Source: Candidatus Mcinerneyibacterium aminivorans (lineage in GTDB: Bacteria; Macinerneyibacteriota; Macinerneyibacteria; Macinerneyibacteriales; Macinerneyibacteriaceae). From it: 64,000 nucleotides of DNA. Within the stretch, counting starts at the first letter, position 1. Every line of letters begins with the position of its first letter. A program made the position numbers and the translations under genes. A model generated the notes under the pieces. That model searched no databases. It saw nothing but the letters and a program-made list of their open reading frames with translations, and had not been told where the DNA came from. The stretch spans positions 1-64,000 of the forward strand of contig VSIX01000003.1 of assembly GCA_008086245.1 (NCBI GenBank), written 5' to 3'. This document shows positions 1 through 51,127 of the stretch, in pieces.

Positions 1-43
1 AAACAAAAACATTGTTATTTTAAATTTTTATGATAAAGTTTAA

Positions 44-5642: not shown

Positions 5643-6023
5643 ATGGCAAGAGAAGGTTTAATGTATACAGATTCGGATGAGTGGGTTCAAAAAAAGGATA
5701 ATAATATCCTGAGAGTAGGAATTACTGATCATGCACAATCGGAATTGGGAGACATTGTTTATGTTGATTTACCGGAAATAGGTGAAGAATATGACAAAGG
5801 CGATGATGTTAATGAAATAGAATCGGTAAAGGCAGTAGCTGAAGTTAAAGCTCCTGTTAGCGGCAAAATTGTTGCAATCAATGATCAGCTTGAAGATGAT
5901 CCAGCACTTCTAAATGAAGAACCTTTTGATAATGGTTGGATTTTTGAAATTGAAATGACAGATCCTGATCAGCTTGAAAATTTGATGGATCTTGAAGAAT
6001 ATGAAAGCAAATTAGAGGAGTAA
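5643..6023 (+). CDS. gcvH: Glycine cleavage system H protein (lipoyl carrier)
   Basis: Lipoyl-attachment motif E-S-V-K-A (EIESVKAVAEV) and C-terminal GWIFEIE-type motif; 126 aa. Confidence 0.9.
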   Translation: MAREGLMYTDSDEWVQKKDNNILRVGITDHAQSELGDIVYVDLPEIGEEYDKGDDVNEIESVKAVAEVKAPVSGKIVAINDQLEDDPALLNEEPFDNGWIFEIEMTDPDQLENLMDLEEYESKLEE

Positions 6024-6042
6024 ACATTTAAAGGAGGTACAT

Positions 6043-7392: not shown

Positions 7393-7401
7393 GTGGGGAT
7401 T

Positions 7402-16880: not shown

Positions 16881-17933
16881 ATGGGAAAAAGAATTCTGAT
16901 GAAAGGTAATGAAGCAATGGGAGAAGCCGCTATTAGAGCTGGCTGTGAAGGATATTTTGGTTATCCAATTACTCCCCAAAGTGAATTAACAGCTTATATG
17001 TCCAAGAAAATGGTGGAAGAAGATAGAGTTTTTGTTCAGGCTGAAAGTGAAATTGCGGCAATAAATATGGTTTATGGAGCAGGTGCTGCAGGTAGAAGAA
17101 CCATGACATCTTCCTCATCTCCAGGAGTGAGTCTTAAACAGGAAGGAATATCCTATATCGCAGGTGCAAGAGTACCCGCAGTAATTATTAATGTACAGCG
17201 TGGTGGACCCGGACTCGGCAACATTGCTCCTGCTCAGGGTGATTACTATCAATCCACAAGAGGTGGAGGAAATGGAGATTACCGTCTGATAAGTTTGGCA
17301 CCTAATTCCGTTCAGGAAATGGCAGATTTTGTTATGGATGCATTTGAATTAGCTGATAAATATAGGGTACCTGCTATTATTGTTGCGGATGGAATGTTGG
17401 GACAGATGATGGAACCGGTTGAATTTAGAGATCCAGTTGATATCGATTCTCTACCCAAAAAAGAATGGGCTTTAACCGGAAAAAAAGGAAGAGATCAAAA
17501 TGTAGTTCATTCATTAAGTTTAGGCGGTACAGGTTTGATGGAACATAATGAAAAACTAAAAAAAGTATATAACAAAATTGAAAAAAATGAAGTTAAGTAC
17601 GAAGAAATGGAAACAGAGGATGCAGAAATTGTAATAGTTTCTTACGGTTCAGCTTCAAGAGCATGTATCGGAGCTGTAAGGCAGCTAAGAGAAGAGAATA
17701 AAAAAGTAGGACTAATCAGACCTCAAACATTATGGCCCTATCCATATGATATTATAAGAAAAAGAGCAAAAAGTGCTAAGAAAGTCCTGGTTGTCGAAAT
17801 GAGTTTAGGACAGATGATTGATGATGTGAAAATTGCTGTTGAAGGTCAAACTGAAGTGGACTTCTTAGGTAAAGCCGGTGGATGGGTACCTACTAAACGC
17901 GAAATAGTTGATAAAGTAAATGAAATTTTATAG
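16881..17933 (+). CDS. korA: 2-oxoacid (2-oxoglutarate-type):ferredoxin oxidoreductase alpha subunit
   Basis: 350 aa; GNEAMGEAAIRAGC...GYPITPQSE N-terminus typical of KorA/OorA/PorA. Confidence 0.85.
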   Translation: MGKRILMKGNEAMGEAAIRAGCEGYFGYPITPQSELTAYMSKKMVEEDRVFVQAESEIAAINMVYGAGAAGRRTMTSSSSPGVSLKQEGISYIAGARVPAVIINVQRGGPGLGNIAPAQGDYYQSTRGGGNGDYRLISLAPNSVQEMADFVMDAFELADKYRVPAIIVADGMLGQMMEPVEFRDPVDIDSLPKKEWALTGKKGRDQNVVHSLSLGGTGLMEHNEKLKKVYNKIEKNEVKYEEMETEDAEIVIVSYGSASRACIGAVRQLREENKKVGLIRPQTLWPYPYDIIRKRAKSAKKVLVVEMSLGQMIDDVKIAVEGQTEVDFLGKAGGWVPTKREIVDKVNEIL

Positions 17934-17950
17934 GAAAGAGGTGTTGATAG

Positions 17951-18694
17951 ATGGAATGTATTTTTAAAAAACCGGAATCAATGACAGAAAATAAGACTAT
18001 TTATTGTCCAGGCTGTCATCATGGGATTATTCATAGATTAGTTGCTGAAGTTATAGATGAGCTGGATATTGCAGACAAAGCAATAGGAGTTGCTCCTGTA
18101 GGGTGCTCTGTACTTGCATATGATTATATAGATGTTGATTTTGCTGAAGCTGCACATGGTAGAGCTCCGGCTATGGCTACAGGTATAAAATTGCCACAAC
18201 CGGATAAAGTTGTTTTTACCTATCAGGGTGATGGAGACCTGGCTTCAATAGGTGCAGCAGAAATATTACATCTTGCTAATCGCGGGTATAATATTACTAC
18301 AGTTTTTGTAAACAATGCTATTTATGGAATGACCGGTGGACAGATGGCTCCTACAACATTGGAAGGTCAAAAAACAGCTACTTCTCCTATGGGAAGAAGA
18401 ATTGATATACATGGATATCCAATGAGAGTTTCTGAAATATTAACCAAAACTCCGGGAGCTGCTTATATCGCACGTGGAGCAGTTTATGACCCAGCTAATG
18501 TGAATAAAACCAAGAAAATGATTAAGAAAGCTTTCCAAAATCAAATTGATGGAAAGGGTTTCTCAATGGTTGAAGTGCTTTCAATTTGCCCTACAAACTG
18601 GGGTATGTCTCCACTTGATGCTCAGGAATGGTTGAAAGAAAATATGGTACCTTATTATCCATTGGGTGTAAAAAAAGATATTGATGAAGAATAA
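17951..18694 (+). CDS. korB: 2-oxoacid:ferredoxin oxidoreductase beta subunit (TPP-binding)
   Basis: CPGCHHG, GDGD TPP-binding motif (TYQGDGDLASIG); 247 aa. Confidence 0.85.
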   Translation: MECIFKKPESMTENKTIYCPGCHHGIIHRLVAEVIDELDIADKAIGVAPVGCSVLAYDYIDVDFAEAAHGRAPAMATGIKLPQPDKVVFTYQGDGDLASIGAAEILHLANRGYNITTVFVNNAIYGMTGGQMAPTTLEGQKTATSPMGRRIDIHGYPMRVSEILTKTPGAAYIARGAVYDPANVNKTKKMIKKAFQNQIDGKGFSMVEVLSICPTNWGMSPLDAQEWLKENMVPYYPLGVKKDIDEE

Positions 18695-18713
18695 ATTAAT
18701 TTGAGGAGGAATT

Positions 18714-19247
18714 ATGGAACATAGAATTATAATGGCAGGCTTTGGTGGCCAGGGTATTATGGTAATGGGCAGTATGCTTACTTATGCAGCAATGAAGGAA
18801 GGTAAAGAAACTTCTTGGATTCCTTCTTATGGAGTTGAGCAAAGAGGTGGAACAGCAAATTGTAGTGTAGTCGTATCTGATGAAATAATAGCTGCACCAA
18901 TTGTTGACAATCCTGATATGGCCATAATAATGAATAGACCTTCACTTGATAAATTTGAACCCAGAATGGTTAAAAATGGACTGCTTCTAATAAATGATTC
19001 TATTGTAGAAAGAGAAGTAGAAAGAGATGATTTGGAAGTAATAAGAATTAAAGCGAATGATATTGCAATAGAACTGGGTAATAAAAGAATTGCTAATATG
19101 GTAATGTTAGGTGCACTTACCAAAAAGACAGGAATTGTAAAGATAGAAACCCTTAAAAATTCACTTAAGGATGTTTTATCAAAAAGAAGACATGATTTAA
19201 TCGGAATTAATCAAAAGGCTCTTGATAAAGGAGCAGATCTAGTATAA
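18714..19247 (+). CDS. korC: 2-oxoacid:ferredoxin oxidoreductase gamma subunit
   Basis: 177 aa; MAGFGGQGIMVMG N-terminus typical of the gamma subunit. Confidence 0.85.
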   Translation: MEHRIIMAGFGGQGIMVMGSMLTYAAMKEGKETSWIPSYGVEQRGGTANCSVVVSDEIIAAPIVDNPDMAIIMNRPSLDKFEPRMVKNGLLLINDSIVEREVERDDLEVIRIKANDIAIELGNKRIANMVMLGALTKKTGIVKIETLKNSLKDVLSKRRHDLIGINQKALDKGADLV

Positions 19248-31793: not shown

Positions 31794-32645
31794 ATGAAAA
31801 AATTTACTATTATAATTATTCCGCCAGGTAGTACTAAAATGAAAAAGCTTAGATTGGGGAAGATCCCTTTCTTTATGCTGGTTCTTTTTTTACTGCTTGT
31901 AATTACTTATTCAGTATGGCTTGCATTTAATTTTTCTTCCTATGTTTATCAAAAAGAAAAAAATGAACAGCTCTCGGCAAGATATGACACACTTGTTAAA
32001 GAAAGAAAAAAGGACAAACAAAAACTTAAAAAAATAAAGAAGGAACTTTCACAGCTTGAAAATATGATGGGTAAAATATCCAATATAATGGGAGTAAAAA
32101 TTGATAAAGAGGTTAACAACAAAAAGGATTATTATCAGAGTTATGAAAAAAAATGGATAGGAGAAAAGTTAAAGGAATATAACTATGTTACACGGGATAG
32201 TTATATGAATTTATCGGCACCAAAATTTATACCTGTTAGTGGATGGATATCATCCAGGTTTGGAACCAGAAAATCTCCTTATACCAGCAAAAATGAATTT
32301 CACCCGGCAGTTGATATTATTGCTCCTATGGGAAGAACCATACGCGCTGCAGCCAGTGGAAAAGTTGTAAATATTAAAGAAGACCCTACTATGGGAAAAG
32401 TTTTATATATATATAATAAGTGGGGATATTTGACCAAGTATGCTCATAATAATAAAATATTTGTAAATATAGGGGATAAAGTTGAAATTGGAGATAAAAT
32501 TGCAGAAGTTGGGGTAAGTGGTAAAACAACCGGCCCCCATCTACATTTTCAAATGGAATTATTAAGAATTCCTGTAGATCCAGAAAAATATGGCATGGAA
32601 TTAAGTGATAAAAGAATATTTGAAAAATCAGGAGGGAATGAGTAA
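31794..32645 (+). CDS. M23-family (LytM) metallo-endopeptidase with N-terminal TM anchor and coiled coil
   Basis: HPAVDI...(HxxxD) and GPHLHFQM (HxH) zinc motifs; 283 aa. Confidence 0.8.
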   Translation: MKKFTIIIIPPGSTKMKKLRLGKIPFFMLVLFLLLVITYSVWLAFNFSSYVYQKEKNEQLSARYDTLVKERKKDKQKLKKIKKELSQLENMMGKISNIMGVKIDKEVNNKKDYYQSYEKKWIGEKLKEYNYVTRDSYMNLSAPKFIPVSGWISSRFGTRKSPYTSKNEFHPAVDIIAPMGRTIRAAASGKVVNIKEDPTMGKVLYIYNKWGYLTKYAHNNKIFVNIGDKVEIGDKIAEVGVSGKTTGPHLHFQMELLRIPVDPEKYGMELSDKRIFEKSGGNE

Positions 32646-32971
32646 TGGCAAAAAATAATTATGATATGAATACTATACTTGGCGAGAATTCTAACTACGA
32701 AGGTGATATGAAAATTGAAGGAAGTATGAGAGTTGAAGGTATTTTTAAGGGAGAAATAACAGCAAGTTCTGTAGTAGTTGGAAAAAATGCCAAATTAGAG
32801 GCTAATATAAATGCTGATAGTGTTATTGTTGGTGGAGAAGTTAACGGTAATATAAATACAACCAAGGAGCTTACTCTACAAAAAACGGGAAAAATAATAG
32901 GAGATGTCGAAACTCCTACATTAGTTGTGGAAGATGGAGCGATTCTTCAGGGAAACTGCAAAATGAAATAA
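32645..32971 (+). CDS. Bactofilin (CcmA-like polymer-forming cytoskeletal protein, DUF583 beta-helix)
   Basis: 108 aa of repeated hydrophobic-x-G beta-helix windings (MKIEGSMRVEGIFKGEITASSVVVGKNAKLEANINADSVIVGGEVNGNINT...); start codon overlaps the M23 peptidase stop. Confidence 0.75.
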   Translation: MAKNNYDMNTILGENSNYEGDMKIEGSMRVEGIFKGEITASSVVVGKNAKLEANINADSVIVGGEVNGNINTTKELTLQKTGKIIGDVETPTLVVEDGAILQGNCKMK

Positions 32972-32972
32972 T

Positions 32973-33230
32973 ATGGATTTGAATGATTATTTACGATATT
33001 TCTATATCTTTTCACAGCTTGGATTTGTAGTCGTTGTATCCATTGTAATATTTATATATTTAGGAAACTATATTGATAAAAATATATGGCACACCGGTGG
33101 GGTATTTACGGTGTTAGGTATTTTTTTGGGTATTTTTTCAGCAGGATTTAATTCTTATAAAATATATAAAAAGTATATAGATGAATTGGAAAAAATTGAC
33201 AGGAACGACAGAGACAGAGACAAAAAATAA
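32973..33230 (+). CDS. Small 2-TM membrane protein, AtpZ/AtpI-family-like (putative ATP synthase accessory protein)
   Basis: 85 aa, two hydrophobic helices, positioned directly upstream of atpI-atpB. Confidence 0.45.
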   Translation: MDLNDYLRYFYIFSQLGFVVVVSIVIFIYLGNYIDKNIWHTGGVFTVLGIFLGIFSAGFNSYKIYKKYIDELEKIDRNDRDRDKK

Positions 33231-33311
33231 GCAGGTATTGACATTGTTGCTACATAAAATTTTTGTTGACAGTATATTTTTATCGTGATACCTTTCACGA
33301 AAGGATGAGTT

Positions 33312-33689
33312 ATGGAATATTCAGTAATGAAAGTACTATTAAATAAGATATTAACATTTGTTGGAATTATAATTTCTGTTATCTTGTATGCAGTAACAGA
33401 TGTAAGTATAGCTTTAGGATTTTTAGCAGGAATTATTGTTATGCTTATAAACTGGAAGCTTCTTGCATGGCAGAATGAAAAAATTGTAAAAGGTGAAAAG
33501 AAACCCAGTTATGCATATGCATTTTATTTTTTCAGGTATGCTATTATTGGTGCCGTTTTGTTTTTATCTTTTAAATTTGAAAATATAGATGGTTATGGTA
33601 CAATAGCAGGTGTTATATTTGCCTTGATTTATGCATTTATTTTTGCTCTTTTCATAAGCAAAAAAGAAAGGGGAAACCAGGATGAATGA
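33312..33689 (+). CDS. atpI: ATP synthase protein I (AtpI)-like 4-TM membrane protein
   Basis: 125 aa, four hydrophobic helices, immediately upstream of and overlapping atpB. Confidence 0.5.
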   Translation: MEYSVMKVLLNKILTFVGIIISVILYAVTDVSIALGFLAGIIVMLINWKLLAWQNEKIVKGEKKPSYAYAFYFFRYAIIGAVLFLSFKFENIDGYGTIAGVIFALIYAFIFALFISKKERGNQDE

Positions 33690-34377
33690 GGTTGGCTCAA
33701 TAGATACAACATCTTTTCAAATAGGAGATTTAAATATAGTTTTTAATCATCATACACTGATAATGATATGGATTGTAATTTTTGTTATTTGTATTACTTT
33801 ATATCTATTAACAAGAAATATGACAAAAATACCTTCAAGAGGACAAACAGTAGTGGAAATGCTTATTGATTATTTTGATCAATTAGCTAAAGAGTCCTTG
33901 GGGGAAAATCATAGGAGATATTTACCGTTTATAGTAACAATATTTTTGTTTGTTTTGGTTTCAAACTGGATTGGAATTGTACCTTTAATGGATGAACCCA
34001 CCAAGGATTTAAATACTCCTATGGGAATAGGTATTTTAGTTTTATTTGTTACTATTTATTCGGGAATTAGATATAATGGATTTTTTGGATTTGTAAAAGA
34101 GTTTTTTGAACCTGTATGGTTCTTATTTCCAATAAATGTAGTTGGTGAGATTGGAAAATTTATTTCACTAATATTCCGTTTGTTTGGAAATGTTTTTGGG
34201 GGTACTGTAATTGTATGGGTTGGTTTCACTATGTTGTTAAAAACCTGGTGGACCGGATGGGTTCTATTATTTCTTGGCCCGGCCCTTTATGGTTTTTTTG
34301 GTCTGTTCATCGGGGCAATTCAGGCTTTTGTTTTTACTATGCTTTCGATGACTTATATCTCCATAGTGAAAAATTGA
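33682..34377 (+). CDS. atpB: F0F1 ATP synthase subunit a
   Basis: Conserved stator Arg in FRLFGNVFGG; 231 aa, 5-6 TM. Confidence 0.85.
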   Translation: MNEVGSIDTTSFQIGDLNIVFNHHTLIMIWIVIFVICITLYLLTRNMTKIPSRGQTVVEMLIDYFDQLAKESLGENHRRYLPFIVTIFLFVLVSNWIGIVPLMDEPTKDLNTPMGIGILVLFVTIYSGIRYNGFFGFVKEFFEPVWFLFPINVVGEIGKFISLIFRLFGNVFGGTVIVWVGFTMLLKTWWTGWVLLFLGPALYGFFGLFIGAIQAFVFTMLSMTYISIVKN

Positions 34378-34386
34378 GGAGAATAT

Positions 34387-34869
34387 ATGGAAGTTGTAAC
34401 TGAATTAGTTATATATTTAAGTGCTGGTATAGCAATGGGATTTGGAGCAATTGGATCTGGTATAGGGGAAGGCCTTGCAGGCGGTAAAGCTGTAGAAGCA
34501 GCTGCCAGACAACCAGGTGTGCAGGGTAAAGTTATGAAAACCATGTTAATTGGACAGGCAATTTCTGAATCAGGAGGCATTTATGCTTTAGTAGTAGCCG
34601 TTTTGCTGTTGTTTACAGCCCCGCATGAAGCACTATCAGTAGGTAAAATTGCAGCTCTTCTTGGTTCTGGGATATGCATGGGATTTGGTGCATTGGGACC
34701 CGGATTAGGGATTGGATATGCTGCCAGCAAGGGAGTTGAAGGTGTTGGTAGAAGTCCTCATAATGAACCGGTGATTTTTAGAACTATGCTTATCGGCCAG
34801 GCCGTTTCAGGATCTACAAGTATTTATGCTCTGGTAGTTTCGTTACTATTGTTGTTTGTTATTAAATAA
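34387..34869 (+). CDS. atpE: F0 ATP synthase subunit c, fused tandem double-hairpin form (4 TM, one carboxylate)
   Basis: 160 aa = two c-subunit hairpins in one ORF. Hairpin 1 has GQAISESGGIYALVV (ion-binding Glu present); hairpin 2 has GQAVSGSTSIYALVV (Glu replaced by Gly). Confidence 0.8.
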   Translation: MEVVTELVIYLSAGIAMGFGAIGSGIGEGLAGGKAVEAAARQPGVQGKVMKTMLIGQAISESGGIYALVVAVLLLFTAPHEALSVGKIAALLGSGICMGFGALGPGLGIGYAASKGVEGVGRSPHNEPVIFRTMLIGQAVSGSTSIYALVVSLLLLFVIK

Positions 34870-34892
34870 AAAAGGAAGGAAGGAGATAGATT

Positions 34893-35174
34893 ATGATAAA
34901 TATTGTCGATATGTTAAAAGAGATATCAATTTCGGGTGATCAAATAGTTAGAAGTGCTGCTCTTCTTGGAGCAGGAATAGCTATGGGTGTTGGTGCTATT
35001 GGTCCTGGTATTGGAGAGGGTTTTGCTGCAGGGAAAGCCTGTGAGGGCATATCAAAAAGACCCGAGGAAAGCGGTCTTTTAACCAGAACAATGCTTGTTG
35101 GACAGGCTGTATCTGAATCAACCGGGATATATTCATTAGTTATTGCTCTACTTCTTATATTTGTTGTTGCCTAA
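34893..35174 (+). CDS. atpE: F0 ATP synthase subunit c, single-hairpin form with Na+-type binding signature
   Basis: MLVGQAVSESTGIYSLVIALLLIF is near-identical to the E65-S66-T67...Y70 Na+-binding helix of Ilyobacter/Propionigenium c subunits. Confidence 0.8.
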   Translation: MINIVDMLKEISISGDQIVRSAALLGAGIAMGVGAIGPGIGEGFAAGKACEGISKRPEESGLLTRTMLVGQAVSESTGIYSLVIALLLIFVVA

Positions 35175-35192
35175 GCTTAAAGGAGTTGAATT

Positions 35193-35690
35193 ATGAATGA
35201 TACTCTTTTAAATGCTACTACAATTTTATCTGCATTAAGCTTCATTATATTGCTGGTATTACTTAAAAAATATGTTTACAATATCGTATTGAAAGTTATT
35301 GATGAACGAAGAGAAGAAATAAAAAATAAAATCGAAACTGCAAATGAAAGAAAAGAAGAGGCTGAAGAACTAAAAAATCAGTATTCAAAACGACTTGAAG
35401 AAGCTTATACTAAAGCGGAAGAAATTAAAGATGATATTGTTGCTACAGCTGAAAATGAAAAGAAAGAAATTGTAAAACAGGCCAAAAAAGAGTCGGAAAA
35501 CATTAAAGAAAAGGCTCAAAAAGAAATTGATATGCAGGTAAGAAAAGTTAAGGAACAGTTAAGACGGGAAACTGCAGATATATCGGTTGAAATAGCTAAA
35601 ACTATTTTAGAAAAAGAAATTGATAAAAAGGAACATAAAGAATTAATCAAGGACTTTCTCGAAGGTCTGGGTGAGGAACGTGGCAAATGA
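35193..35690 (+). CDS. atpF: F0 ATP synthase subunit b
   Basis: N-terminal TM then long charged helix; 165 aa; operon position. Confidence 0.8.
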   Translation: MNDTLLNATTILSALSFIILLVLLKKYVYNIVLKVIDERREEIKNKIETANERKEEAEELKNQYSKRLEEAYTKAEEIKDDIVATAENEKKEIVKQAKKESENIKEKAQKEIDMQVRKVKEQLRRETADISVEIAKTILEKEIDKKEHKELIKDFLEGLGEERGK

Positions 35691-36228
35691 ACCAGTAGCT
35701 ATTAAATATTCCACAGCATTATTTAATGTAGCAGTTGATTCTGATATCAATGATGATGTTTTAGAACTATTAAAAGTAATGCAAAATGCTTTTGTTGAGA
35801 ATATAAAATTGTATCAAACATTTATTAATCCGGAAATTGCAAAAAAAACAAAACTAAATATTGTAAGTGAAATATTAAAAGGTAAAAAAGCCAATGAACT
35901 GGTTTTAAAATTCTTTGAACTCCTATTTGAAAAGGGAAGAATTAATATTTTTGATGAAATTGTAAAACAGTATGATCTTTTAAATAAAGAAGAGAACGGA
36001 ATATTAGATGTAAAAGTCTACAGTGCTTTTGAATTGCATAATGATACTAAAAAGTTAATTAAAGATAAATTAAAGGAATATTATCCCGGTAGTAAGGAAG
36101 TACAATTAAATATTAAGGTTGATGAGAAATTAATTGGTGGAATTAAGCTTGAAATGAGAGGTAAAATTTTCGATGGAAGCATATCCGGGTATTTAAGTAA
36201 AATGAAAAAAACATTGAGAGGTGAGTGA
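35671..36228 (+). CDS. atpH: F1 ATP synthase subunit delta (OSCP)
   Basis: 185 aa; OSCP-like; GTG start overlapping the atpF end. Confidence 0.75.
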
Positions 36229-37850
36229 TACCTGTGGCTAATATAAGGTCAGATGAAATTAAAGATATATTACAAAAACAGCTTGAGGGCTATGAAAAAG
36301 AAACAGATATTTCGCAAGTAGGAACTGTTATAGAAGTTGGAGATGGAATTGCTAACGCATACGGTTTGAAAGATGCTATGGCATCAGAGCTCGTTGAGTT
36401 CGATTCAGGATTAAATGGTTTAATTTTGAATTTGAATGAAAACAGTGTTGGAATAGTTGTTTTTGGTGAAACCAGAATGATCAAAGAAGGGGATAAAGTA
36501 AAAACTACCGGTAAAATTTTACAAACAAAGGTAGGACCCGAACTTCTTGGTAGAGTTGTTAATCCTCTTGCCGAACCGCTTGACGGTAAAGGTGAGATAA
36601 ACGCATCAGAAACTGCTAATATTGAAAAAATTGCTCCGGGAATTGTTTATAGAAAACCTGTTGAAGTTCCATTACAATCAGGGGTAAAAGCAATTGATTC
36701 AATGATTCCTATTGGTAGAGGGCAGCGTGAGTTAATTATAGGGGATAGAAAGACAGGTAAAACGGCTCTTGCTGTGGATACAATAATTAACCAAAAAGAC
36801 AATGATGTGAAGTGTATATATGTTGCTATTGGTCAAAAGAGATCAACTGTAGCAAGTCTGGTGGAAACATTTGAACAATACGGGGCGATGGAGTACACAA
36901 CAGTTGTAGCTGCTACTGCAAGTGATCCTACTCCATTACAGTATATTGCTCCTTATGCCGGTTGTGCAATAGGAGAATACTACAGAGATAATGGAGAAGA
37001 TGCTTTAATCGTTTATGATGATTTATCCAAGCATGCTGTTGCTTACAGAGAAATGTCTCTGGTATTGAGACGTCCCCCAGGTCGTGAAGCTTATCCTGGA
37101 GATATATTTTATCTTCATTCAAGACTTCTTGAAAGAGCTGCTAAACTGAATGATGATGAAGGTGGAGGAAGTTTAACTGCATTACCGATTGTTGAAACAA
37201 AAGCTGGAGATGTTTCAGCTTATATTCCAACAAATGTTATCTCTATTACGGATGGACAAATTTATTTAAAATCGGATCTTTTTTATTCCGGGGTTAGACC
37301 TGCAGTTGATGTAGGTATTTCTGTATCAAGAGTTGGTGGAAATGCACAAATTAAGGCCATGAAACAGATAGCCGGGGATTTAAGATTGGACCTGGCTCAG
37401 TATAGAGAAATGGAATCATTTGCCCAGTTTGGAGCCGAGCTTGATGAAGCTACAAAGGCACAGCTGACCAGAGGAGAAAAGCTGGTTGAATTATTAAAGC
37501 AGGGCGAACATGTGCCAATGTCTGTATATGAACAAATACTTCAGTTATTCATAGGGGTAAATGGATACCTCGATGATATTAAAACCGAAGATGTTGAAGA
37601 ATTTGTATCTGAAACTGTGGAATTTATTAAATCCAAAGGTGAAGATGCTTTGGAAAAACTTAAGGAAAAAAAGAAATTTGATGAAGAACTTGAAAAAAAG
37701 TTAAAAGATTTAATTGAAGAATTTAAAGAGGCTTATTCTGCGAAATTTGAGAAAGAAAAAGAGGAAGAAGATAATGAGGAAAAAACTGCTGATGAAATAA
37801 ATACTGAGGAAGAAAAAAAAGAAACCAAAAAAGATGAAGAAGAAAAATAA
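36225..37850 (+). CDS. atpA: F1 ATP synthase subunit alpha with acidic/lysine-rich C-terminal extension
   Basis: Walker [10 protein letters not shown]; 541 aa versus about 505 typical. The extra C-terminal ~40 aa are E/K-rich ([62 protein letters not shown]). Confidence 0.85.
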
Positions 37851-37876
37851 GTGATATAAATTAAGAGGTTGATAAA

Positions 37877-40304
<2,428 letters not shown>

Positions 40305-40322
40305 GATAATAAAGGGTTAATT

Positions 40323-40724
40323 ATGGCTGAAAAAATACATTTGAAAATATTGGTCCCTGAAGGAATAAAATATGAGGAAGATGTTTCTCAGGTTATACTT
40401 CCAGGAGAAGCTGGAGAATTCTCTGTTGTAAAAAAACATATTTCTATGATAACTCCTCTTAAAATAGGACAGATTGAAATTGTTAGTGGAGAAGAAAGTA
40501 GAAAGTTGATGGCTGCAGCAGGGGGGATTTCCAGGGTTGAACCCGAATATATCACCTTGATTTTAAGAGCTGCAGAATTTGAAGATGAAATAGACGTTAA
40601 TAGGGCTGAAGCAGCAAAAAAAAGAGCTGAAAAAAGATTAAATAGTGACAAAAAAGAAATAGATTATAATAGAGCAGAAAGAGCATTAAGAAGAGCGGTT
40701 AATCGTTTAAATGTCGCAAAATAA
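40323..40724 (+). CDS. atpC: F1 ATP synthase subunit epsilon
   Basis: 133 aa; beta-sandwich plus C-terminal helical hairpin pattern; operon position. Confidence 0.8.
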   Translation: MAEKIHLKILVPEGIKYEEDVSQVILPGEAGEFSVVKKHISMITPLKIGQIEIVSGEESRKLMAAAGGISRVEPEYITLILRAAEFEDEIDVNRAEAAKKRAEKRLNSDKKEIDYNRAERALRRAVNRLNVAK

Positions 40725-42911: not shown

Positions 42912-44111
42912 ATGAATATTTTAATAATTAATGCAGGAAGTTCATCAATAAAATTTCAGTTGATGGATGTGGATAGTGAAGAAACAAAGATAAAAGGCCT
43001 GGTACAAAGGATTAATCAGGATAATCCGGAAATTAGCTGGAAAATCAGGAAAGAAAAATCAAAGAAAAAAATAAACATCGAAGATCATAGAGGAGGATTA
43101 AAAGAGGTTCTTGATCTTTTGGTTGATAAGGAGAACGGGGTTCTGGAAAGCTATGATCAAATTGATGCTGTTGGGCACCGATATGTACATGGAGGAGAGA
43201 AGTTCCAGGATTCTACTCTTATTAAAGATGAACTGATGAAGGATTTCGAAAAGCTAAATCATTTAGCTCCACTGCACAATCCAAATAATTTAGCCGGGGT
43301 AAGAGCAATAAAAGAATTAATCCCTGAAGTTCCTAATGTTGCAGTTTTTGATACTTCTTTTCATTCAAAACTTCCGCCAAAAGCCTATGTTTATCCTTTA
43401 CCTTATGAACTGTATGAAGAAAAAGGTATAAGAAGATACGGCTTCCACGGAACCTCACATCATTATGTATCGATGGAAGCAGCAGATATGATTAATAAAC
43501 CTTATGAAGAAGCAAAAATTATTACATGTCATATGGGTAATGGAATTTCATTTAGTGCAATTGATGGTGGACATTCGGTGGATACTTCTCTTGGTTTTTC
43601 CACTGTATGCGGGATTCCAATGGGAACAAGATCTGGAGATTTTGATGTCGGACTGGTAACTCATTTAATAAAATCAGAGGGATATTCGGTAGATGAAGTT
43701 CATGAAATGATATATAAAAAAAGCGGTCTTTTAGGTGTTTCAGGCATTTCTAATGATGCAAGAGATGTTGAAAAGGCAGCATGGGAAGAGGGAAATGAAA
43801 GAGCACAGCTTGCACTGGATATTTTGCATTATAAAGCAAAGAAATATATTGGATCTTATATAGCAGCAATGAATGGATTGGATGCGCTTGTATTTACCGC
43901 TGGAATTGGAGAAAACGGCTGGGAAAGCAGAGAAGCTATATGTAAAGATATGGAATATTTAGGGATTAAGCTTGATAAAGAAAAGAATAGAGTTCGTGGT
44001 AAAAAGGCCGATGTATCAAAAAAGAATTCACCGGTAAGAATTCTTGCAATCCCCACAAATGAGGAATTAATGATTGCAAAAGAAACTAAGAGGGTAGTAA
44101 ATAACTTATAA
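42912..44111 (+). CDS. ackA: Acetate (or propionate) kinase
   Basis: MNILIINAGSSSIKFQL N-terminus and ASKHA-fold motifs; 399 aa. Confidence 0.9.
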   Translation: MNILIINAGSSSIKFQLMDVDSEETKIKGLVQRINQDNPEISWKIRKEKSKKKINIEDHRGGLKEVLDLLVDKENGVLESYDQIDAVGHRYVHGGEKFQDSTLIKDELMKDFEKLNHLAPLHNPNNLAGVRAIKELIPEVPNVAVFDTSFHSKLPPKAYVYPLPYELYEEKGIRRYGFHGTSHHYVSMEAADMINKPYEEAKIITCHMGNGISFSAIDGGHSVDTSLGFSTVCGIPMGTRSGDFDVGLVTHLIKSEGYSVDEVHEMIYKKSGLLGVSGISNDARDVEKAAWEEGNERAQLALDILHYKAKKYIGSYIAAMNGLDALVFTAGIGENGWESREAICKDMEYLGIKLDKEKNRVRGKKADVSKKNSPVRILAIPTNEELMIAKETKRVVNNL

Positions 44112-44125
44112 AGAAGGAGTGAATT

Positions 44126-45793
44126 ATGTCTGAATATGAAAAAATAAAAAAAGAAAAAAAAGAATGGGAAGAAAAAAAGTTAAATAAATTTCTGGAAAAA
44201 GCTCCTGAAAGAAAGGAAGAATTTAAAAACTCCACAGGTGAAGTAGAAAGAGTTTATACACCGCAGGAAGATATTGAGGATAAATATGTTAATGAAATAG
44301 GTTTCCCCGGACAGTATCCGTTTACCAGGGGGGTTTATCCTACAATGTACAGAGGTAGATTGTGGACAATGAGACAATATGCAGGTTTTGGTACTGCAGA
44401 AGAATCAAATAAAAGATATAAATATCTTCTGGAGCAGGGGCAAACTGGGTTATCGGTAGCTTTTGATTTACCAACACAGATTGGGTACGATTCCGATGAT
44501 GAAATGAGCATTGGAGAAGTTGGTAAGGTGGGAGTTGCTATAGACACATTGAAAGATATGGAGATATTGTTTGATGGGATTCCCCTTGAAAAAGTATCAA
44601 CTTCTATGACAATAAATGCTCCGGCTGCTGTACTTTTGGCCATGTATATAGCAGTTGCTGAAAAACAGGGAGTCAGCAAAGAAAAATTAAGAGGAACCAT
44701 TCAAAATGATATTTTAAAGGAATACATTGCAAGAGGCACATATATATATCCACCGGAATCATCAATGAGATTGATTACAGATATTTTTGAATACTGTTCG
44801 GATGAGGTTCCTAAATGGAATACAATAAGTATTTCTGGATACCATATTAGAGAGGCCGGTTCAGATGCCGTTCAGGAAGTAGCTTTTACAATTGCTGATG
44901 GAATAGAATATGTAAAAAAAGCAATTGAAGCAGGTCTTGATGTGGATAAGTTTGGAAGAAGATTGTCGTTTTTCTTTAACGCACATAATGATTTACTGGA
45001 AGAAGTTGCCAAATTCAGAGCAGCACGAAGGATTTGGGCTAAGGTTATGAAAGAAAAATTTGATGCAAAAAAGGAAAAATCAATGAGATTGAGATTCCAT
45101 ACGCAAACTGGAGGTTCTACATTAACGGCACAGCAGCCCGATAATAATATAGTTAGAGTAGCAATTCAGACACTTGCAGCTGTATTGGGAGGCACACAGA
45201 GTTTGCATACGAATTCAAGGGATGAAGCTTTATCTCTTCCAACCGAAGATTCTGTTCGAATAGCTCTCAGGACACAGCAAATAGTTGCCCATGAATCAGG
45301 TGTAACAAAAACTATTGATCCTCTAGCAGGCTCTCATTATGTTGAAAAATTAACAGATGAGATTGAAGAGCAGGTTTGGGAATATATTGATAAAATTGAG
45401 GAACTGGGTGGAATGACCAAAGCAATTGAAAAAGGTTATGTTCAAAAAGAGATTCAGGATTCAGCTTATGATTATCAAAAGGAAATTGAAAATAAAGAAA
45501 GAATAGTAGTTGGTGTTAATAAATATCAGATAGATAAAGAACCTGAAAGCGATATATTAAAGGTTAACCCAAAACTTAGGGAAGTTCAGATTGATAGAAT
45601 TGAGAAGGTAAAGAAAAAAAGAGATAGCAAAAAAGTTGAACAAAAATTAGCAGAACTGAAAAATGCAGCCGAAGGCAGCGATAATCTTATGCCTTATATT
45701 ATTGATGCAGTTAAAGAATATGCAACTCTTGGTGAAATTTGTAATACATTAAGAGATGTTTTCGGTGAATACGAAGAATCTATTGTTCTTTAA
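44126..45793 (+). CDS. mcmA: Methylmalonyl-CoA mutase, large catalytic (substrate-binding) subunit
   Basis: 555 aa with the TIM-barrel MCM motifs ([30 protein letters not shown]...); lacks the B12 domain, which is encoded by the next gene. Confidence 0.85.
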
Positions 45794-45806
45794 ATAAGGA
45801 GGAAAA

Positions 45807-46214
45807 ATGTCCGATAAAAAAATTAGAATATTAATAGGAAAACCGGGACTTGATGGTCATGACAGAGGAGCAAAATATATAGCCAGAGCATTAAAAGATG
45901 CCGGTTATGAAGTTATCTATACCGGTCTCAGACAAACACCTCAATCTATTGTAAATACTGCTATTCAGGAAGATGTGGATTTTGTAGGATTGAGTTTGCT
46001 TTCAGGAGCTCACAATTCTCTATTTCCCAAAATAGTAGAATTGCTGAAGGAAAATGATGCTGAAGATATTATTGTTTTTGGGGGAGGAGTAATTCCTGAA
46101 GATGATATTCCGAATTTGAAAAAACAGGGAGTTGAAGAGATATTTACTCCGGGAACTCCTATAAAGGATGTAGTTGATTTTATTGAATCCAAGAGAGAAA
46201 AAGTGGGAAAATAA
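45807..46214 (+). CDS. Methylmalonyl-CoA mutase small subunit, cobalamin-binding domain
   Basis: DxHxxG B12-binding motif (LDGHDRGA); 135 aa. Confidence 0.85.
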
Positions 46215-46220
46215 ACAGTC

Positions 46221-47177
46221 ATGGATATAGAAAATAAAATATTAGAAGGTAGCCCGAGGCATTTAGCCCGGGCTATTTCTATGGTTGAAAATAACAGTCC
46301 GCAAAAAGAAGAAATTATTGATGCACTCTATCCCAAAACGGGTAATGCACTTATTATAGGCGTTACAGGATCTCCCGGTTCTGGAAAAAGTACTTTGGTT
46401 GATAAAATACTCAAAAATGAGTTAAAAAAGGACCAAAAAATTGGGGTGATTGCTGTGGATCCTTCCTCCCCATTTTCAGGAGGTGCTTTATTAGGAGACA
46501 GAATCAGAATGCAGAAACATTCAGGAAACCCCAATATTTTTATAAGATCAATGGCTTCCAGGGGACATCTCGGAGGTATTTCAGCCGCCACATCTGATGT
46601 GACCAAATTGCTGGATGCAGCTGGATACAATTTAATAATAATAGAAACAATCGGGGTTGGACAAACAGAAGTTGAGATTATTGAATTAGCTGATATTATA
46701 CTGCTAACGATGGCTCCCGGCATGGGAGATGACATTCAGGCAATGAAAGCCGGAATAATGGAAATAGGAGATGTTTTTGTAGTAAATAAAAAGGATAAAG
46801 ATGGAGCAGATAAAGTTAAAAAAGAATTGGATTATGTTCTGGATATTAAATATCATGATAATCCTGAAAATAAAAATCCTATAAAAATGGTCTCTGCGTT
46901 AAATAATGAAGGTATAGAAGAATTGATGAATTCTGTTTATAATTATATAAATAAACTCAAGAAACAGGGGAAATGGGAAGATAAAAGAAAAACAAAAATA
47001 AAGAAGGAATTAAAAAAAATATTTAGCAAAAAAATACATGAACTTATGGACATTCATATAAATTATACTGAAAAATTGGATGACTGGGTTAAACTTCTTA
47101 TGAACAAAGAGGAGAAGCCCTATAGTTTGATAAATAAAGAATTAAAATCTTTTATAAAGGAGAGTGAAATATTATGA
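46221..47177 (+). CDS. meaB: Methylmalonyl-CoA mutase-associated G-protein chaperone MeaB/ArgK
   Basis: P-loop GVTGSPGSGKST, NKKD G4 motif; 318 aa. Confidence 0.85.
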   Translation: MDIENKILEGSPRHLARAISMVENNSPQKEEIIDALYPKTGNALIIGVTGSPGSGKSTLVDKILKNELKKDQKIGVIAVDPSSPFSGGALLGDRIRMQKHSGNPNIFIRSMASRGHLGGISAATSDVTKLLDAAGYNLIIIETIGVGQTEVEIIELADIILLTMAPGMGDDIQAMKAGIMEIGDVFVVNKKDKDGADKVKKELDYVLDIKYHDNPENKNPIKMVSALNNEGIEELMNSVYNYINKLKKQGKWEDKRKTKIKKELKKIFSKKIHELMDIHINYTEKLDDWVKLLMNKEEKPYSLINKELKSFIKESEIL

Positions 47178-47575
47178 TTGAAAAAATTGATCATATTGGT
47201 ATTGCTGTGAAATCACTTGAAAAGCATCTACCTTTCTATACTAAGATACTGGGACTGGAATTAATAGGAAAGGAAGAAATAGAAGATCAAAAGGTAAAAG
47301 TAGCAATGATAAAAGTAGGGAATGTTAAAATTGAATTGTTAGAACCTACAGTTGATGATAGCCCTATTGCAAAGTTTATCGATAAAAGAGGGGAAGGAAT
47401 GCACCATATAGCATATCATTCAAATGATATTAAAAAGGAAATTAAAAATTTGAAAGAAAATGATATTAGAATGATTGATAAGAAGCCAAGAGAAGGTGCC
47501 CATGGGACAAAGATTGCATTTGTTCATCCAAAATCTTCTGGAAAAGTATTAACTGAAATATGTGAAAATGAATAG
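47174..47575 (+). CDS. mce: Methylmalonyl-CoA epimerase (VOC/glyoxalase fold)
   Basis: IDHIGIAVKSLE N-terminus; 133 aa; cluster context. Confidence 0.8.
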   Translation: MIEKIDHIGIAVKSLEKHLPFYTKILGLELIGKEEIEDQKVKVAMIKVGNVKIELLEPTVDDSPIAKFIDKRGEGMHHIAYHSNDIKKEIKNLKENDIRMIDKKPREGAHGTKIAFVHPKSSGKVLTEICENE

Positions 47576-47587
47576 GAGGAAAAAAAT

Positions 47588-49138
47588 ATGACAATGGAAA
47601 GAAAAATTCTTGAACTTAAGGAAAAAATTGAACAGGCAAAGATGGGCGGTGGACAGAAAAGAATTGACAAACAACATAAAAAAGGGAAATTAACTGCCCG
47701 TGAAAGAATTCAGTATCTTCTTGATGAAGGTAGTTTCGAAGAAATTGATATGTTTAGAGAACATCAGTGTCATGAATTTGGGATGGAAAATAAAAAGATG
47801 CTTGGTGATGGAGTAGTTACTGGATATGGAACAATTGATGGAAGATTGGTTTATCTTTATGCATTTGATTTTACAGTTATTGGGGGATCTCTTTCAAAAA
47901 CTGTATCAAATAAAATTGTGAAAGTAATGGAAATGTCAGCCAAGATGGGGGCACCAATAATAGGCTTAAATGATTCCGGTGGTGCAAGAATACAGGAAGG
48001 TATAGACGCTTTAAGCGGATACGCAGCTATCTTCCAGAGAAATGTATTATATTCAGGTGTTGTTCCACAAATTACAGGAATTGTGGGTCCGTGCGCAGGC
48101 GGAGCTGTTTATTCTCCTGCTTTAACTGATTTTATTTTTATGAAGAAAGAAACATCTTTTATGTTTATTACGGGTCCGAGAGTGGTTAAAAGTGTTACAC
48201 AGGAAGATGTAACCCATGAGGAGCTCGGTGGAGCTATGGTTCACGCTACAAAAAGTGGGGTTACACATTTTACCTACGAGGATGAAAAAGAATTATTGGA
48301 TGGAATTAGAGAATTAATTACATATATACCTCAAAACAATATGGAGGAACCTCCTGAAGTTAAAACTGAAGATCCCGTTGATAGAATAGATGAAGATTTA
48401 AATTATATAGTTCCCGATAATCCAAATAAACCTTATGAAATGAAAGATATTATAACAAAAGTAGTTGATGATGGTGAATTTTTTGAGGTTCAGGAATTAT
48501 ATGCACCAAATATTATAATAGGTTTTGGTAGACTCGGCGGAAAAAGTGTTGGTATAGTTGCAAATCAGCCGAAACATCTGGCGGGAGTGCTGGATATTGA
48601 TGCTTCAGTTAAAGCTGCCAGATTTATAAGATTCTGCGATAGCTTTAATATTCCCGTAGTAACTTTTGAAGATGTTCCCGGATTCATGCCCGGAACAAAA
48701 CAGGAATATGGAGGAATAATTAGACACGGAGCTAAATTAATGTATGCCTATGCCGAAGCTACAGTTCCAAAAATAACTGTAATAACAAGAAAAGCTTACG
48801 GCGGAGCTTACTGTGTTATGAATTCAAAGGAATTAAGAGGTGACATGATTTTTGCTTGGCCATCTGCTGAAGTAGCAGTTATGGGTCCAAAAGGTGCCAG
48901 TCAAATAATATTTAGAAAAGAAATAAAAAATGCGGATGACCCTGAAAAGAAACTACAGGAAAAAATTGATGATTATAGAGAAAAATTTGCCAATCCCTAT
49001 GTTGGAGCATCTAAGGGATATATAGATGAGGTTATTGAACCCAAAGTTACAAGATATAAACTTATAAAATCTTTGAAAATGCTTGAAAACAAAAGAGATG
49101 AAAATCCAAGCAAAAAACATGGTAATATTCCCCTGTAG
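47588..49138 (+). CDS. mmdA: Methylmalonyl-CoA decarboxylase alpha subunit / propionyl-CoA carboxylase beta-type carboxyltransferase
   Basis: 516 aa; N-terminus ...[22 protein letters not shown] typical of the family; two crotonase-like carboxyltransferase halves. Confidence 0.85.
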
Positions 49139-49147
49139 GAGGAAAAA

Positions 49148-49534
49148 ATGTTATTAAAAATTGTACAAAATATTAACAGTGTTGAGCCAAACGGTTTTAA
49201 AGTTGCCCTCAATGGAATAATAACAGTATTTATAGGGTTGATTTTGATAGCTTTTTCAATTTGGCTTTTTAATGTAATTTTTAAATATTTTGGAAATAGA
49301 AAAAAAGAAGATATAAAAATACCCGGCAAAGGGATGGATGTTTCCAAAGCACAGGAAAAAATACATATAAAGAAGAAAAAGGTAGATGATGATACTCTTA
49401 TTGCAATAGCAACCGCACTGGAACTGTATCAGAGATTACATATTGAAACCCTTCAGAGTAAGATTACCTTTAAAAGTGGAAAACAGAAATCAAACTGGAA
49501 GCTGGGCTATAAAGTTGGACACAGAGATAATTAA
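49148..49534 (+). CDS. Small membrane-anchor subunit of the Na+-decarboxylase (MmdD/OadG-like)
   Basis: 128 aa; single N-terminal TM followed by a charged region, sandwiched between the carboxyltransferase and biotin-carrier genes as in Veillonella mmdADECB. Confidence 0.5.
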   Translation: MLLKIVQNINSVEPNGFKVALNGIITVFIGLILIAFSIWLFNVIFKYFGNRKKEDIKIPGKGMDVSKAQEKIHIKKKKVDDDTLIAIATALELYQRLHIETLQSKITFKSGKQKSNWKLGYKVGHRDN

Positions 49535-49543
49535 GGAGGACAA

Positions 49544-49978
49544 ATGAAAGACATAGTATTAGAAATTAATGGTAAAGAATATAAAGTAAAGATAAATTCT
49601 TTTGGATCGGAAAAAGCAAAGCTTACTGTTAACGGAGAAGAATATGAAGTAGGACTAAAAGACCTTGGTATAAGAGAGATTTCGGAAGTGGAGTCAAGAC
49701 CAAGGCCTAAACCAAAAGCAAAGAAAAATGAGCAAAAAGCAAAGAAGCCCGATTCGACACCAAGTTCCAAAAAAGTTAAAGCTCCCCTTCCAGGTCTAAT
49801 TCTTGAAATACAGGTAAAAGAAGGAGATGAAGTAAAAGCTGGACAGGATATTCTGGTTATGGAAGCAATGAAAATGGAAAATGAAATTCAATCTAATCAG
49901 AGCGGTATAGTAAAGTCTATAAAGGTAGAAGAGGGCGACAATGTTTATGAAGGTGACGTATTAATAGAACTTGAATAA
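49544..49978 (+). CDS. mmdC: Biotin carboxyl carrier subunit (biotinyl domain)
   Basis: E-A-M-K-M biotinyl-lysine motif (VMEAMKMENEI); A/P/K-rich linker; 144 aa. Confidence 0.85.
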   Translation: MKDIVLEINGKEYKVKINSFGSEKAKLTVNGEEYEVGLKDLGIREISEVESRPRPKPKAKKNEQKAKKPDSTPSSKKVKAPLPGLILEIQVKEGDEVKAGQDILVMEAMKMENEIQSNQSGIVKSIKVEEGDNVYEGDVLIELE

Positions 49979-49993
49979 TTTGGAGGGTAAATA

Positions 49994-51127
49994 ATGGATA
50001 TATTAATTAATGTAATAAATCGAACAGGCTTCGCTGAAATGCAGCTTGGTAATGTAATAATGGTGGTTATAGGCCTTATTGCTATTTATCTTGCTATTGC
50101 AAAAAAATACGAACCTTTATTGTTGCTTCCAATTGGATTTGGTATAATTTTAGGCAATATTGCATACCCCGAAGGATTACCACTTGGAGTTTATGATGAG
50201 GGTAGTGTCTTTAGTATAATTTATATGCTTGTTAGGGAGGGAGTATTACCTCCTTTGATATTTTTAGGAATTGGAGCAATTACCGATTTTTCAACTTTAA
50301 TATCAAATCCGAAATCTGTACTTCTGGGAGCAGCTGCTCAGGTTGGTATTTTTACAACTTATCTGGGAGCACTTGCACTTGGTTTTAGCGGGAAAGCTGC
50401 AGCTTCTATAGGAATTATCGGCGGTGCAGATGGCCCTACATCGATATTTTTATCTTCACAGCTTGCTCCGGAACTTCTCGGTCCGATTGCAATAGCAGCC
50501 TATTCATATATGGCTCTTGTACCCGTTATTCAGCCGCCATTTATGAAATTGTTAACAACCAAAAAAGAGCGGGTTATTAGAATGAAACCTCCAAGAAAGG
50601 TTTCTAAAATAGAAAGAATAGCATTTCCGATAATGGCAGTATTAATAGCTACATTAATTGCTCCAGGAGCATTGCCACTTGTAGGAATGCTTATGTTTGG
50701 TAATTTGCTTAAAGAATCCGGAGTAACAGATAGATTAGCTAAAACAGCAGGAAATGCATTGCTGGATATAGCAACTATTCTCCTGGGATTTGCAGTTGGG
50801 GCAAGTACTCAGGCTGATAAATTTTTAAGGGTTACTTCTTTGAAGATATTTGGTCTCGGGGTTCTGGCTTTTTCAATAGCAACAATCTGCGGACTTCTGT
50901 TTGCAAAACTCATGAATTTTTTCATGAAGGATAAAATAAATCCACTGATTGGTGCTGCTGGTGTATCTGCTGTACCGGACTCAGCGAGAGTAGTTCAGCA
51001 TTTTGCACGCAAATATGATAAGGATAATCATTTATTGATGCATGCTATGGCTCCAAATGTAAGTGGGGTTATCGGTTCTGCAATTGCTGCCGGTGTTTTC
51101 TTAACATTATTCAGAGGATTAATTTAA
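49994..51127 (+). CDS. mmdB: Na+-translocating decarboxylase beta subunit (OadB/MmdB family)
   Basis: 377 aa polytopic membrane protein; AIAKKYEPLLLLPIGFG N-terminal motif characteristic of OadB/MmdB. Confidence 0.85.
   Translation: MDILINVINRTGFAEMQLGNVIMVVIGLIAIYLAIAKKYEPLLLLPIGFGIILGNIAYPEGLPLGVYDEGSVFSIIYMLVREGVLPPLIFLGIGAITDFSTLISNPKSVLLGAAAQVGIFTTYLGALALGFSGKAAASIGIIGGADGPTSIFLSSQLAPELLGPIAIAAYSYMALVPVIQPPFMKLLTTKKERVIRMKPPRKVSKIERIAFPIMAVLIATLIAPGALPLVGMLMFGNLLKESGVTDRLAKTAGNALLDIATILLGFAVGASTQADKFLRVTSLKIFGLGVLAFSIATICGLLFAKLMNFFMKDKINPLIGAAGVSAVPDSARVVQHFARKYDKDNHLLMHAMAPNVSGVIGSAIAAGVFLTLFRGLI

Follow-up and report, generated by a model that had tools for sequence, protein, structure and literature searches.

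How many ion sites the c-ring carries determines the ion-to-ATP ratio of a rotary ATP synthase, and fusion of c-subunit hairpins followed by deletion of a site is the proposed route from an F-type synthase to a V-type pump. The ring of Acetobacterium woodii contains nine single-hairpin subunits and one fused c1, in a ratio of 9:1 (PMC9171764). Clostridium aceticum encodes a c1 with the motif Q...ET in hairpin 1 and a hairpin 2 without carboxylate, and has a Na+-stimulated ATPase (PMC7911925). In the c11 ring of Fusobacterium nucleatum, shown to bind Na+ and to be Na+-driven, the ion is held by Glu32 and Glu65 together with Ser66 Oγ and Val63 O of the neighbouring subunit, while Thr67 holds a bound water and Tyr70 hydrogen-bonds Glu65 (PMC3692424). 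Here we analyse the atp cluster of Candidatus Mcinerneyibacterium aminivorans, an organism of its own candidate phylum, in a stretch of 64,000 nucleotides (positions 1 to 64,000 of contig VSIX01000003.1; hereafter the window). It encodes a fused double-hairpin c subunit (c1, atpE1) next to a single-hairpin one (c2, atpE2). In the best-supported reading the locus belongs to the already known hybrid-rotor architecture of the A. woodii type: a canonical F1Fo ATP synthase in which both gene products probably contribute to the membrane rotor.

An earlier note on this DNA, made from the letters alone, had read the 160-aa c1 as two fused hairpins with the ion-binding Glu in the first and Gly in the second, followed by a 93-aa single c. 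Both open reading frames (ORFs) are exactly as it described, with PF00137 found twice in c1 and once in c2. Residues were mapped in an alignment of both c1 hairpins, c2 and the c subunit of Ilyobacter tartaricus that is free of gaps in the critical region (I. tartaricus numbering is used for positions). The Q32 position is occupied by E42 in c2, E28 in c1 hairpin 1 and I109 in c1 hairpin 2; the E65 position by E75, E61 and G142, respectively; S66 by S76, S62 and S143; T67 by T77, G63 and T144; and Y70 by Y80, Y66 and Y147. Thus, c1 carries a single membrane carboxylate per four helices. Relocation of the carboxylate to helix 3, of the kind known from the E. coli A24D/D61G mutant, was rejected, since there is no Asp or Glu in the membrane segments of hairpin 2, where the sole acidic residues (E81, E118 and E127) lie in the linker and loop.

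The predicted structure of c1 (AlphaFold2, 11 sequences) shows the expected four helices, with a predicted local distance difference test score (pLDDT) of 84. Its top Foldseek match is A. woodii c1 (4bem_J; template modelling (TM) score 0.86, root-mean-square deviation 2.1 Å), which is also the best sequence match of c1 in the PDB (E 2e-29, full length). Opposite G142, hairpin 2 of A. woodii c1 has Gln in place of Glu. V-type proteolipids rank behind it, with TM scores of ~0.76-0.80.

The motif of c2, E42...V73-S-E75-S76-T77-G-I-Y80, comprises the complete two-carboxylate set of Na+ ligands, and c2 scores 80 bits against the c subunits of both F. nucleatum (3zk1) and I. tartaricus (1yce). Glu32 and Glu65 of F. 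nucleatum (3ZK1) are shared by c2 and by c1 hairpin 1, and c2 has S66, T67 and Y70 as well. The putative live sites are hence of the F. nucleatum two-carboxylate type (positions 32 and 65). The E-S-T...Y signature noted earlier is indeed of Na+ type, but its assignment to the Ilyobacter/Propionigenium type does not hold, as helix 1 has Glu and not Gln. The F. nucleatum ring differs in being built of identical single hairpins, without fused subunit or blank site. On the stator side, a check of the a subunit for Na+-type residues by alignment of atpB could confirm only the conserved Arg166, within FRLFGN; we know of no validated Na+ signature for this subunit.

Two features of the c sequences deserve mention in their own right. 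The N-terminal extension of c2, ~20 residues long (MINIVDMLKEISISGDQIV; window 34893-34950), finds its counterpart in the alignment in that of A. woodii c1 (NIVDFVIQF...) and not in A. woodii c2. Furthermore, compared with the subunits of I. tartaricus, F. nucleatum and A. woodii, which form 11-mers, the helix-1 Gly motif is longer by one residue in each of the three hairpins (AMGxGAIG vs AM-IAGIG), a difference that might alter ring size.

Because the change from Glu to Gly takes one transition (GAA to GGA) and the sequence comes from a metagenome-assembled genome, G142 was examined as a possible error. Three further full-length, distinct c1 sequences in its 90% cluster (94-99% identical) all have Gly at 142. 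The GGA codon recurs in a sister lineage (loci L006-L008) in independent NCBI, ENA and JGI assemblies, and the fused ORF is uninterrupted in every relative, so no stop codon was missed. G142 is genuine. Between the window and L006, at a synonymous divergence (dS) of ~0.6, the ratio of non-synonymous to synonymous divergence (dN/dS) is 0.057 for hairpin 1, 0.039 for hairpin 2 and 0.008 for c2; purifying selection has therefore acted strongly on the hairpin that lacks a carboxylate, over a split at species level.

Table 1 Features of the atp cluster, c-subunit residues and genes referred to in the text (window positions unless a locus is named)
Feature	Position	Strand	Basis or remark
ATPase_gene1-family small membrane protein, head of atp cluster	32973-33230	+	PF09527 E 8e-12; position kept in relatives
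atpI, assembly factor	33312-33689	+	PF03899 E 8e-12
atpB, stator a subunit	33682-34377	+	PF00119 E 2e-53; alignable with chloroplast and Bacillus a subunits
atpE1, fused double-hairpin c subunit c1, 160 aa	34387-34869	+	two PF00137 domains (E 8e-36)
c1 hairpin 1	residues ~1-78		
c1 linker	residues 79-84		
c1 hairpin 2	residues ~85-160		
c1 E28, helix-1 carboxylate of putative live site (I. tartaricus Q32 position)	34468-34470	+	alignment
c1 E61, hairpin-1 ion-binding carboxylate (E65 position)	34567-34569	+	alignment
c1 G63, hairpin-1 T67 position; probably part of dead site with hairpin 2	34573-34575	+	alignment, covariation
c1 I109, hairpin-2 helix-1 ligand position, non-polar	34711-34713	+	alignment
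c1 G142 (GGA), hairpin-2 carboxylate position; putative dead site	34810-34812	+	alignment
c1 S143-T144-S145-I146-Y147, retained half-site; would complete Na+ site of following c2	34813-34827	+	covariation
atpE2, single-hairpin c subunit c2, 93 aa	34893-35174	+	one PF00137 domain (E 4e-18)
Helix-1 Gly-motif insertion sites	34430-34450, 34670-34690, 34975-34995		
atpF (b)	35193-35690	+	PF00430
atpH (delta)	35671-36228	+	PF00213
atpA	36225-37850	+	ORF list and translation; Pfam families of orthologous genes in relatives
atpG	37877-38728	+	ORF list and translation; Pfam families of orthologous genes in relatives
atpD	38697-40304 (ORF)	+	ORF list and translation; Pfam families of orthologous genes in relatives
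atpC	40323-40724	+	ORF list and translation; Pfam families of orthologous genes in relatives
Acetate kinase	42912-44111 (ORF)		
Methylmalonyl-CoA mutase, B12 subunit, MeaB, epimerase	44126-47575	+	
Na+-translocating methylmalonyl-CoA decarboxylase, carboxyltransferase	47588-49138	+	
Decarboxylase OAD_gamma	49148-49534	+	
Decarboxylase biotin carrier	49544-49978	+	
Decarboxylase OAD_beta	49994-51127	+	
Multi-hairpin fused c, locus L016	2482-3237		
Multi-hairpin fused c, locus L033	2233-3207		
Multi-hairpin fused c, locus L058	1990-3207		

The atp cluster occupies positions 32973-40724 of the plus strand, with the gene1-family protein followed by atpI-B-E1-E2-F-H-A-G-D-C, and gene order and Pfam families are those of a canonical F-type operon with two different atpE genes. 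An N-type (alternate F1F0) Na+ ATPase was excluded: delta (PF00213) is present, the order is standard and not atpDC-Q-R-B-E-F-A-G, and the alt_F1F0 models stay under their curated cut-offs (TIGR03322, 99.9 vs 130.85; TIGR03306, 115 vs 302). A V/A-type proteolipid (K/c) was also excluded by scores below cut-off (NF011483, 53 vs 188; NF004913, 48 vs 211) and by the F-type neighbours. The presence of delta, the standard order and the N-type and V-type scores below cut-off together identify an ordinary F1Fo operon with two c genes.

We infer that c1 and c2 co-assemble into one Na+-coupled ring in which c1 is sub-stoichiometric. Ion sites are located at hairpin-hairpin interfaces, one hairpin giving Glu32 and Glu65 and its neighbour Val63 O, Ser66, Thr67 and Tyr70. 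The single hairpin of c2 would carry a complete site of the F. nucleatum type (E42 and E75 with S76, T77 and Y80), and E28 and E61 of c1 hairpin 1 would form a live site with the preceding hairpin. The interface between the two hairpins of c1 (G63, I109, G142) would be dead: hairpin 2 supplies only I109 and G142, which leaves it presumably unable to bind an ion. S143, T144 and Y147 of hairpin 2 would in turn complete the site of the following c2. With hairpin 1 live, the inner interface dead and the half-site retained, each c1 should add exactly one blank, and Na+/ATP would equal (hairpins - number of c1)/3; if a ring of 11 hairpins holds one c1, as that of A. woodii does, this gives 10/3 = 3.3 Na+/ATP.

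The direction of half-site donation was approached through covariation in 153 fused c subunits, which reduce to 81 distinct patterns of key residues. Where hairpin n+1 has a carboxylate, Ser or Thr occupies position 67 of hairpin n in 78% of cases, vs 16% where it has none (p 4e-14), and Tyr occupies position 70 in 42% vs 1% (p 2e-11), p-values that overstate the support, as the patterns are phylogenetically non-independent. The association with hairpin n-1 runs in the reverse direction. Last hairpins retain [ST]67 and Y70 in 77 of the 81 patterns, including 38 of the 42 that have no carboxylate of their own. It thus appears that where hairpin n+1 supplies the Glu of a site, hairpin n donates S66, T67 and Y70.

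Base pairing is predicted between the end of atpB and the atpE1 translation start, both Shine-Dalgarno sequence and start codon (UCUCC...GGAGA; window 34350-34392); it occurs in the window and in L006 and is absent from relatives with both Glu in c1. In the Gly clade, the mean probability of the Shine-Dalgarno sequence being unpaired is 0.27 and 0.38 for atpE1, vs 0.73 and 0.65 for atpE2. A sequestered ribosome-binding site on atpE1 beside an open one on atpE2 may mean lower translation of c1, a weak hint that would fit its sub-stoichiometric role.

The likeness to A. woodii (4BEM) extends to the order atpI-atpB-atpE1(fused)-atpE2 and to the pairing of a fused c1 that has its carboxylate in hairpin 1 only with a single c2 of Na+ type. 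The two differ as follows: the dead position is Gln in A. woodii and Gly in the window; the dead hairpin of A. woodii keeps Gln as helix-1 ligand, whereas the window has Ile; position 32 of the live sites is Gln in A. woodii and Glu here; and A. woodii has two identical copies of the single-hairpin gene, the window one atpE2. C. aceticum resembles the window in having one fused c1 and a single c2 gene, but this acetogenic Firmicute has the Gln-type motif, and the window, from another candidate phylum, has no Wood-Ljungdahl context within its 64 kb.

The earlier note had called the arrangement the A. woodii solution, which is right for the architecture and the position of the dead hairpin but does not extend to descent. 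In a neighbour-joining bootstrap tree of hairpin cores, the two c1 hairpins of A. woodii and its c2 form one cluster (83%) that joins the c subunits of F. nucleatum and I. tartaricus (91%), while hairpin 1, hairpin 2 and c2 of the window each group with their orthologues in relatives. The two A. woodii c1 hairpins are each 71% identical to A. woodii c2, vs 41-51% core identity to the c1 hairpins of the window. Orthology of window c1 with A. woodii AtpE1, which would group the corresponding hairpins of the two lineages with each other, was rejected on this tree. The two fusions are apparently independent, and the window c1 is apparently an analogue of A. woodii c1, within the limited resolution of a 69-column tree that says little of the deep branches.

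The eukaryotic 16 kDa c subunit and enterococcal NtpK are likewise four-helix double hairpins with one carboxylate (TM 0.76-0.80), but V-type proteolipids share only 18-28% sequence identity with c1 and the window operon is F-type. Human V-type c has its live carboxylate in hairpin 2 (transmembrane helix 4, TM4), whereas c1 of the window has it in hairpin 1. A Gly at the dead position of V-type TM2 could not be established from the MAFFT alignment with human V-type c, which is gapped in TM2.

In relatives at 62-75% identity we found the same neighbourhood, namely M23 peptidase, bactofilin, gene1, atpI, atpB, fused c, single c, atpFHAGDC and a methyltransferase, and their orthologous operons carry the expected Pfam families. 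All of these relatives have Glu at the hairpin-2 carboxylate position; the fusion is therefore older than the site loss, which is recent and confined to a clade at the level of Mcinerneyibacterium. Position 32 of hairpin 2 is E in L002, L009 and L019, I in L001 and L004, and K in L090, so that the hairpin-2 pairs form a series from E32+E65 through I32+E65 or K32+E65 to the I32+G65 of the window. Tentatively, and with a little less than an even chance in our view, this lineage preserves a stepwise series of rotor ion-site loss after fusion, and is the tip of a largely unrecognised, repeatedly evolved trait of anaerobes. A separate curiosity is the closest outgroup of the Gly clade (L090 2480-2974; protein P0029), with Lys at the Q32 position of hairpin 2 and Glu65 kept (KVAESTSY); a tethered cation beside the carboxylate might be another way of silencing or altering a site.

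Several points weigh against the hybrid-rotor reading. The organism is uncultured, and the proposed c1/c2 ring is read from its genes. The direction of half-site donation is drawn from covariation among related sequences rather than from structure, and the helix-1 insertion relative to the 11-mer formers stands in the way of predicting c-ring size. Unlike the Gln of A. woodii, Gly lacks a side chain that could occupy the site or move past the stator Arg. As the relatives keep both Glu, a lower ion ratio was not what the fusion evolved for, and the subsequent site loss could be tolerated drift.

It is unlikely that c1 contributes little or nothing and that the ring is essentially a c2 homo-oligomer, with c1 accessory, conditional or assembly-related. 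The single atpE2 gene with its open, strong ribosome-binding site and the predicted hairpin over the atpE1 Shine-Dalgarno sequence would suit such a ring, and A. woodii rings of c2/c3 only do work in heterologous systems. On the other hand, dN/dS is 0.04-0.06 on both c1 hairpins, the c1-c2 pair is kept in every relative examined, c1 retains half-site residues that are relevant only inside a ring, and c1 is a genuine ring member in A. woodii.

Drift comes next: a hybrid ring forms, but the change from Glu to Gly is a neutral or slightly deleterious event in one genus and no adaptation of the ratio. We judge this improbable, even though the hairpin-2 Glu is kept in sister lineages with the same operon (L001, L002, L004, L009, L019, L090), the change is one transition, and one blank in ~11 positions shifts the ratio by just ~9%. 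The loss is fixed, with no reversal, in two lineages separated by the dS given above; the helix-1 Glu was already lost (E to I) in relatives, and T67 to G in hairpin 1 accompanies the change, which looks like coordinated dismantling of one site; moreover, site loss in fused c subunits is recurrent in many phyla.

That the enzyme is H+-coupled or promiscuous and not Na+-coupled seems very unlikely. Two-carboxylate sites do occur in mixed Na+/H+ enzymes such as that of Methanosarcina acetivorans (discussed in PMC3692424), and the coupling ion of this organism is read from sequence alone; yet c2 has the complete E32/V63/E65/S66/T67/Y70 set of the Na+-driven F. nucleatum ring, and a Na+-pumping decarboxylase is encoded nearby. 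An origin of the fused ORF or the Gly codon in assembly or sequencing, conceivable for a metagenome-assembled genome in which one base change suffices, has practically no chance of being true, being refuted by the same uninterrupted ORF and GGA in independent NCBI, ENA and JGI assemblies and by the fused ORFs of all relatives.

The hybrid-rotor arrangement had been thought in the earlier note to be described only in a few acetogens; this restriction falls. Fused c subunits of 2-6 hairpins were found at no fewer than 78 loci in a scan of GTDB genomes, where counts are of the loci listed and so are lower bounds (the Mcinerneyibacterium genome of the window is not among them), and at 79 loci in a metagenome scan, at least 157 in total, and most of these subunits contain dead hairpins. 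A single-hairpin c gene, nearly always of EVSESTGY type, adjoins the fused one at 76 of the 78 GTDB loci listed and 76 of the 79 metagenome loci (at least 152 altogether). An a-subunit gene upstream and b or delta downstream accompany it at 71 of the 78 GTDB loci listed. The carriers include Cloacimonadota, Desulfobacterales and other Desulfobacterota, Latescibacterota, Planctomycetota, Verrucomicrobiota and others; judged by gene structure, the arrangement is not limited to a few acetogens.

Within the fused subunits, roughly one hairpin in two lacks the carboxylate, the replacement being mostly Gln and rarely G, S, T or H. Gly is found in one hairpin among the GTDB loci listed and in two of the metagenome set, where the only contig of the Gly clade is L008. 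A homology search with c1 returned mainly proteins of 220-257 aa with three fused hairpins, and an exhaustive search of representatives gave 69 clusters (50% identity) at E <=1e-30. Subunits of three, four, five and even six hairpins occur in F-type atp operons (L009-L168; proteins P0002-P0119; examples in Table 1), and some have one live site per 8-12 helices. The literature consulted, which does not include the distribution review of Brandt & Muller 2015, describes the pairing of fused and single c for A. woodii and C. aceticum only, and nothing relevant was found in it on Mcinerneyibacterium, heteromeric c rings, V-type/F-type c subunits or Cloacimonas c subunits.

The earlier note had also placed a Na+-pumping methylmalonyl-CoA decarboxylase in the window, and its cluster is present at 47588-51127. 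These four subunits are the likely source of the sodium-motive force, which the synthase would plausibly draw from a pump encoded 9 kb downstream. Glycine cleavage H and P proteins and a three-subunit 2-oxoacid:ferredoxin oxidoreductase are encoded at 5643-8850 and 16881-19247. Altogether, the gene set is consistent with amino-acid fermentation, formation of propionate and acetate, and a Na+ cycle. The proposed fit to life near the thermodynamic limit is not a straightforward argument. A lower Na+/ATP ratio yields more ATP per Na+ pumped, but fewer ions per ATP raise the sodium-motive force needed for each ATP, unless the phosphorylation potential is lower. In the direction of hydrolysis the same ratio allows a steeper Na+ gradient and suits ATP-driven Na+ extrusion equally well. 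Since relatives get by with two intact sites, adaptation is an unproven interpretation.

Among other features of the cluster, the listed start of atpD is a TTG that overlaps the end of atpG (38697-38760), and an internal ATG (MKKGSVFRV...) is probably the true start. Alpha and beta have long low-complexity, Lys/Glu-rich C-terminal tails of ~50 and ~70 residues (37700-37850 and 40065-40304). The length of beta differs in relatives: 435 aa with a separate 49-aa ORF in L006, and 465-499 aa in L001, L002 and L004. M23 peptidase and bactofilin genes lie directly upstream of the cluster in the window (31794-32971) and in all relatives examined (L002-L006), with a membrane pyrophosphatase (PF03030) a few kb further upstream in L002 and L003.

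The locus adds an apparently independent case of a hybrid rotor in a candidate phylum, with two-carboxylate chemistry and Gly as the dead residue. Its main added value lies in close relatives that have both sites, which permit a direct comparison of ancestral-like and derived enzymes. The apparently wide and varied spread of multi-hairpin F-type c subunits is the most interesting by-product. The survey suggests that hybrid rotors are common in Na+-dependent anaerobes; if so, the ATP yields used in metabolic models need revision. Were the repeatedly evolved trait proposed above real, single-hairpin c and fused subunits of 2-6 hairpins with mostly dead sites would give these organisms Na+/ATP gear ratios that range widely and are set by their genes.

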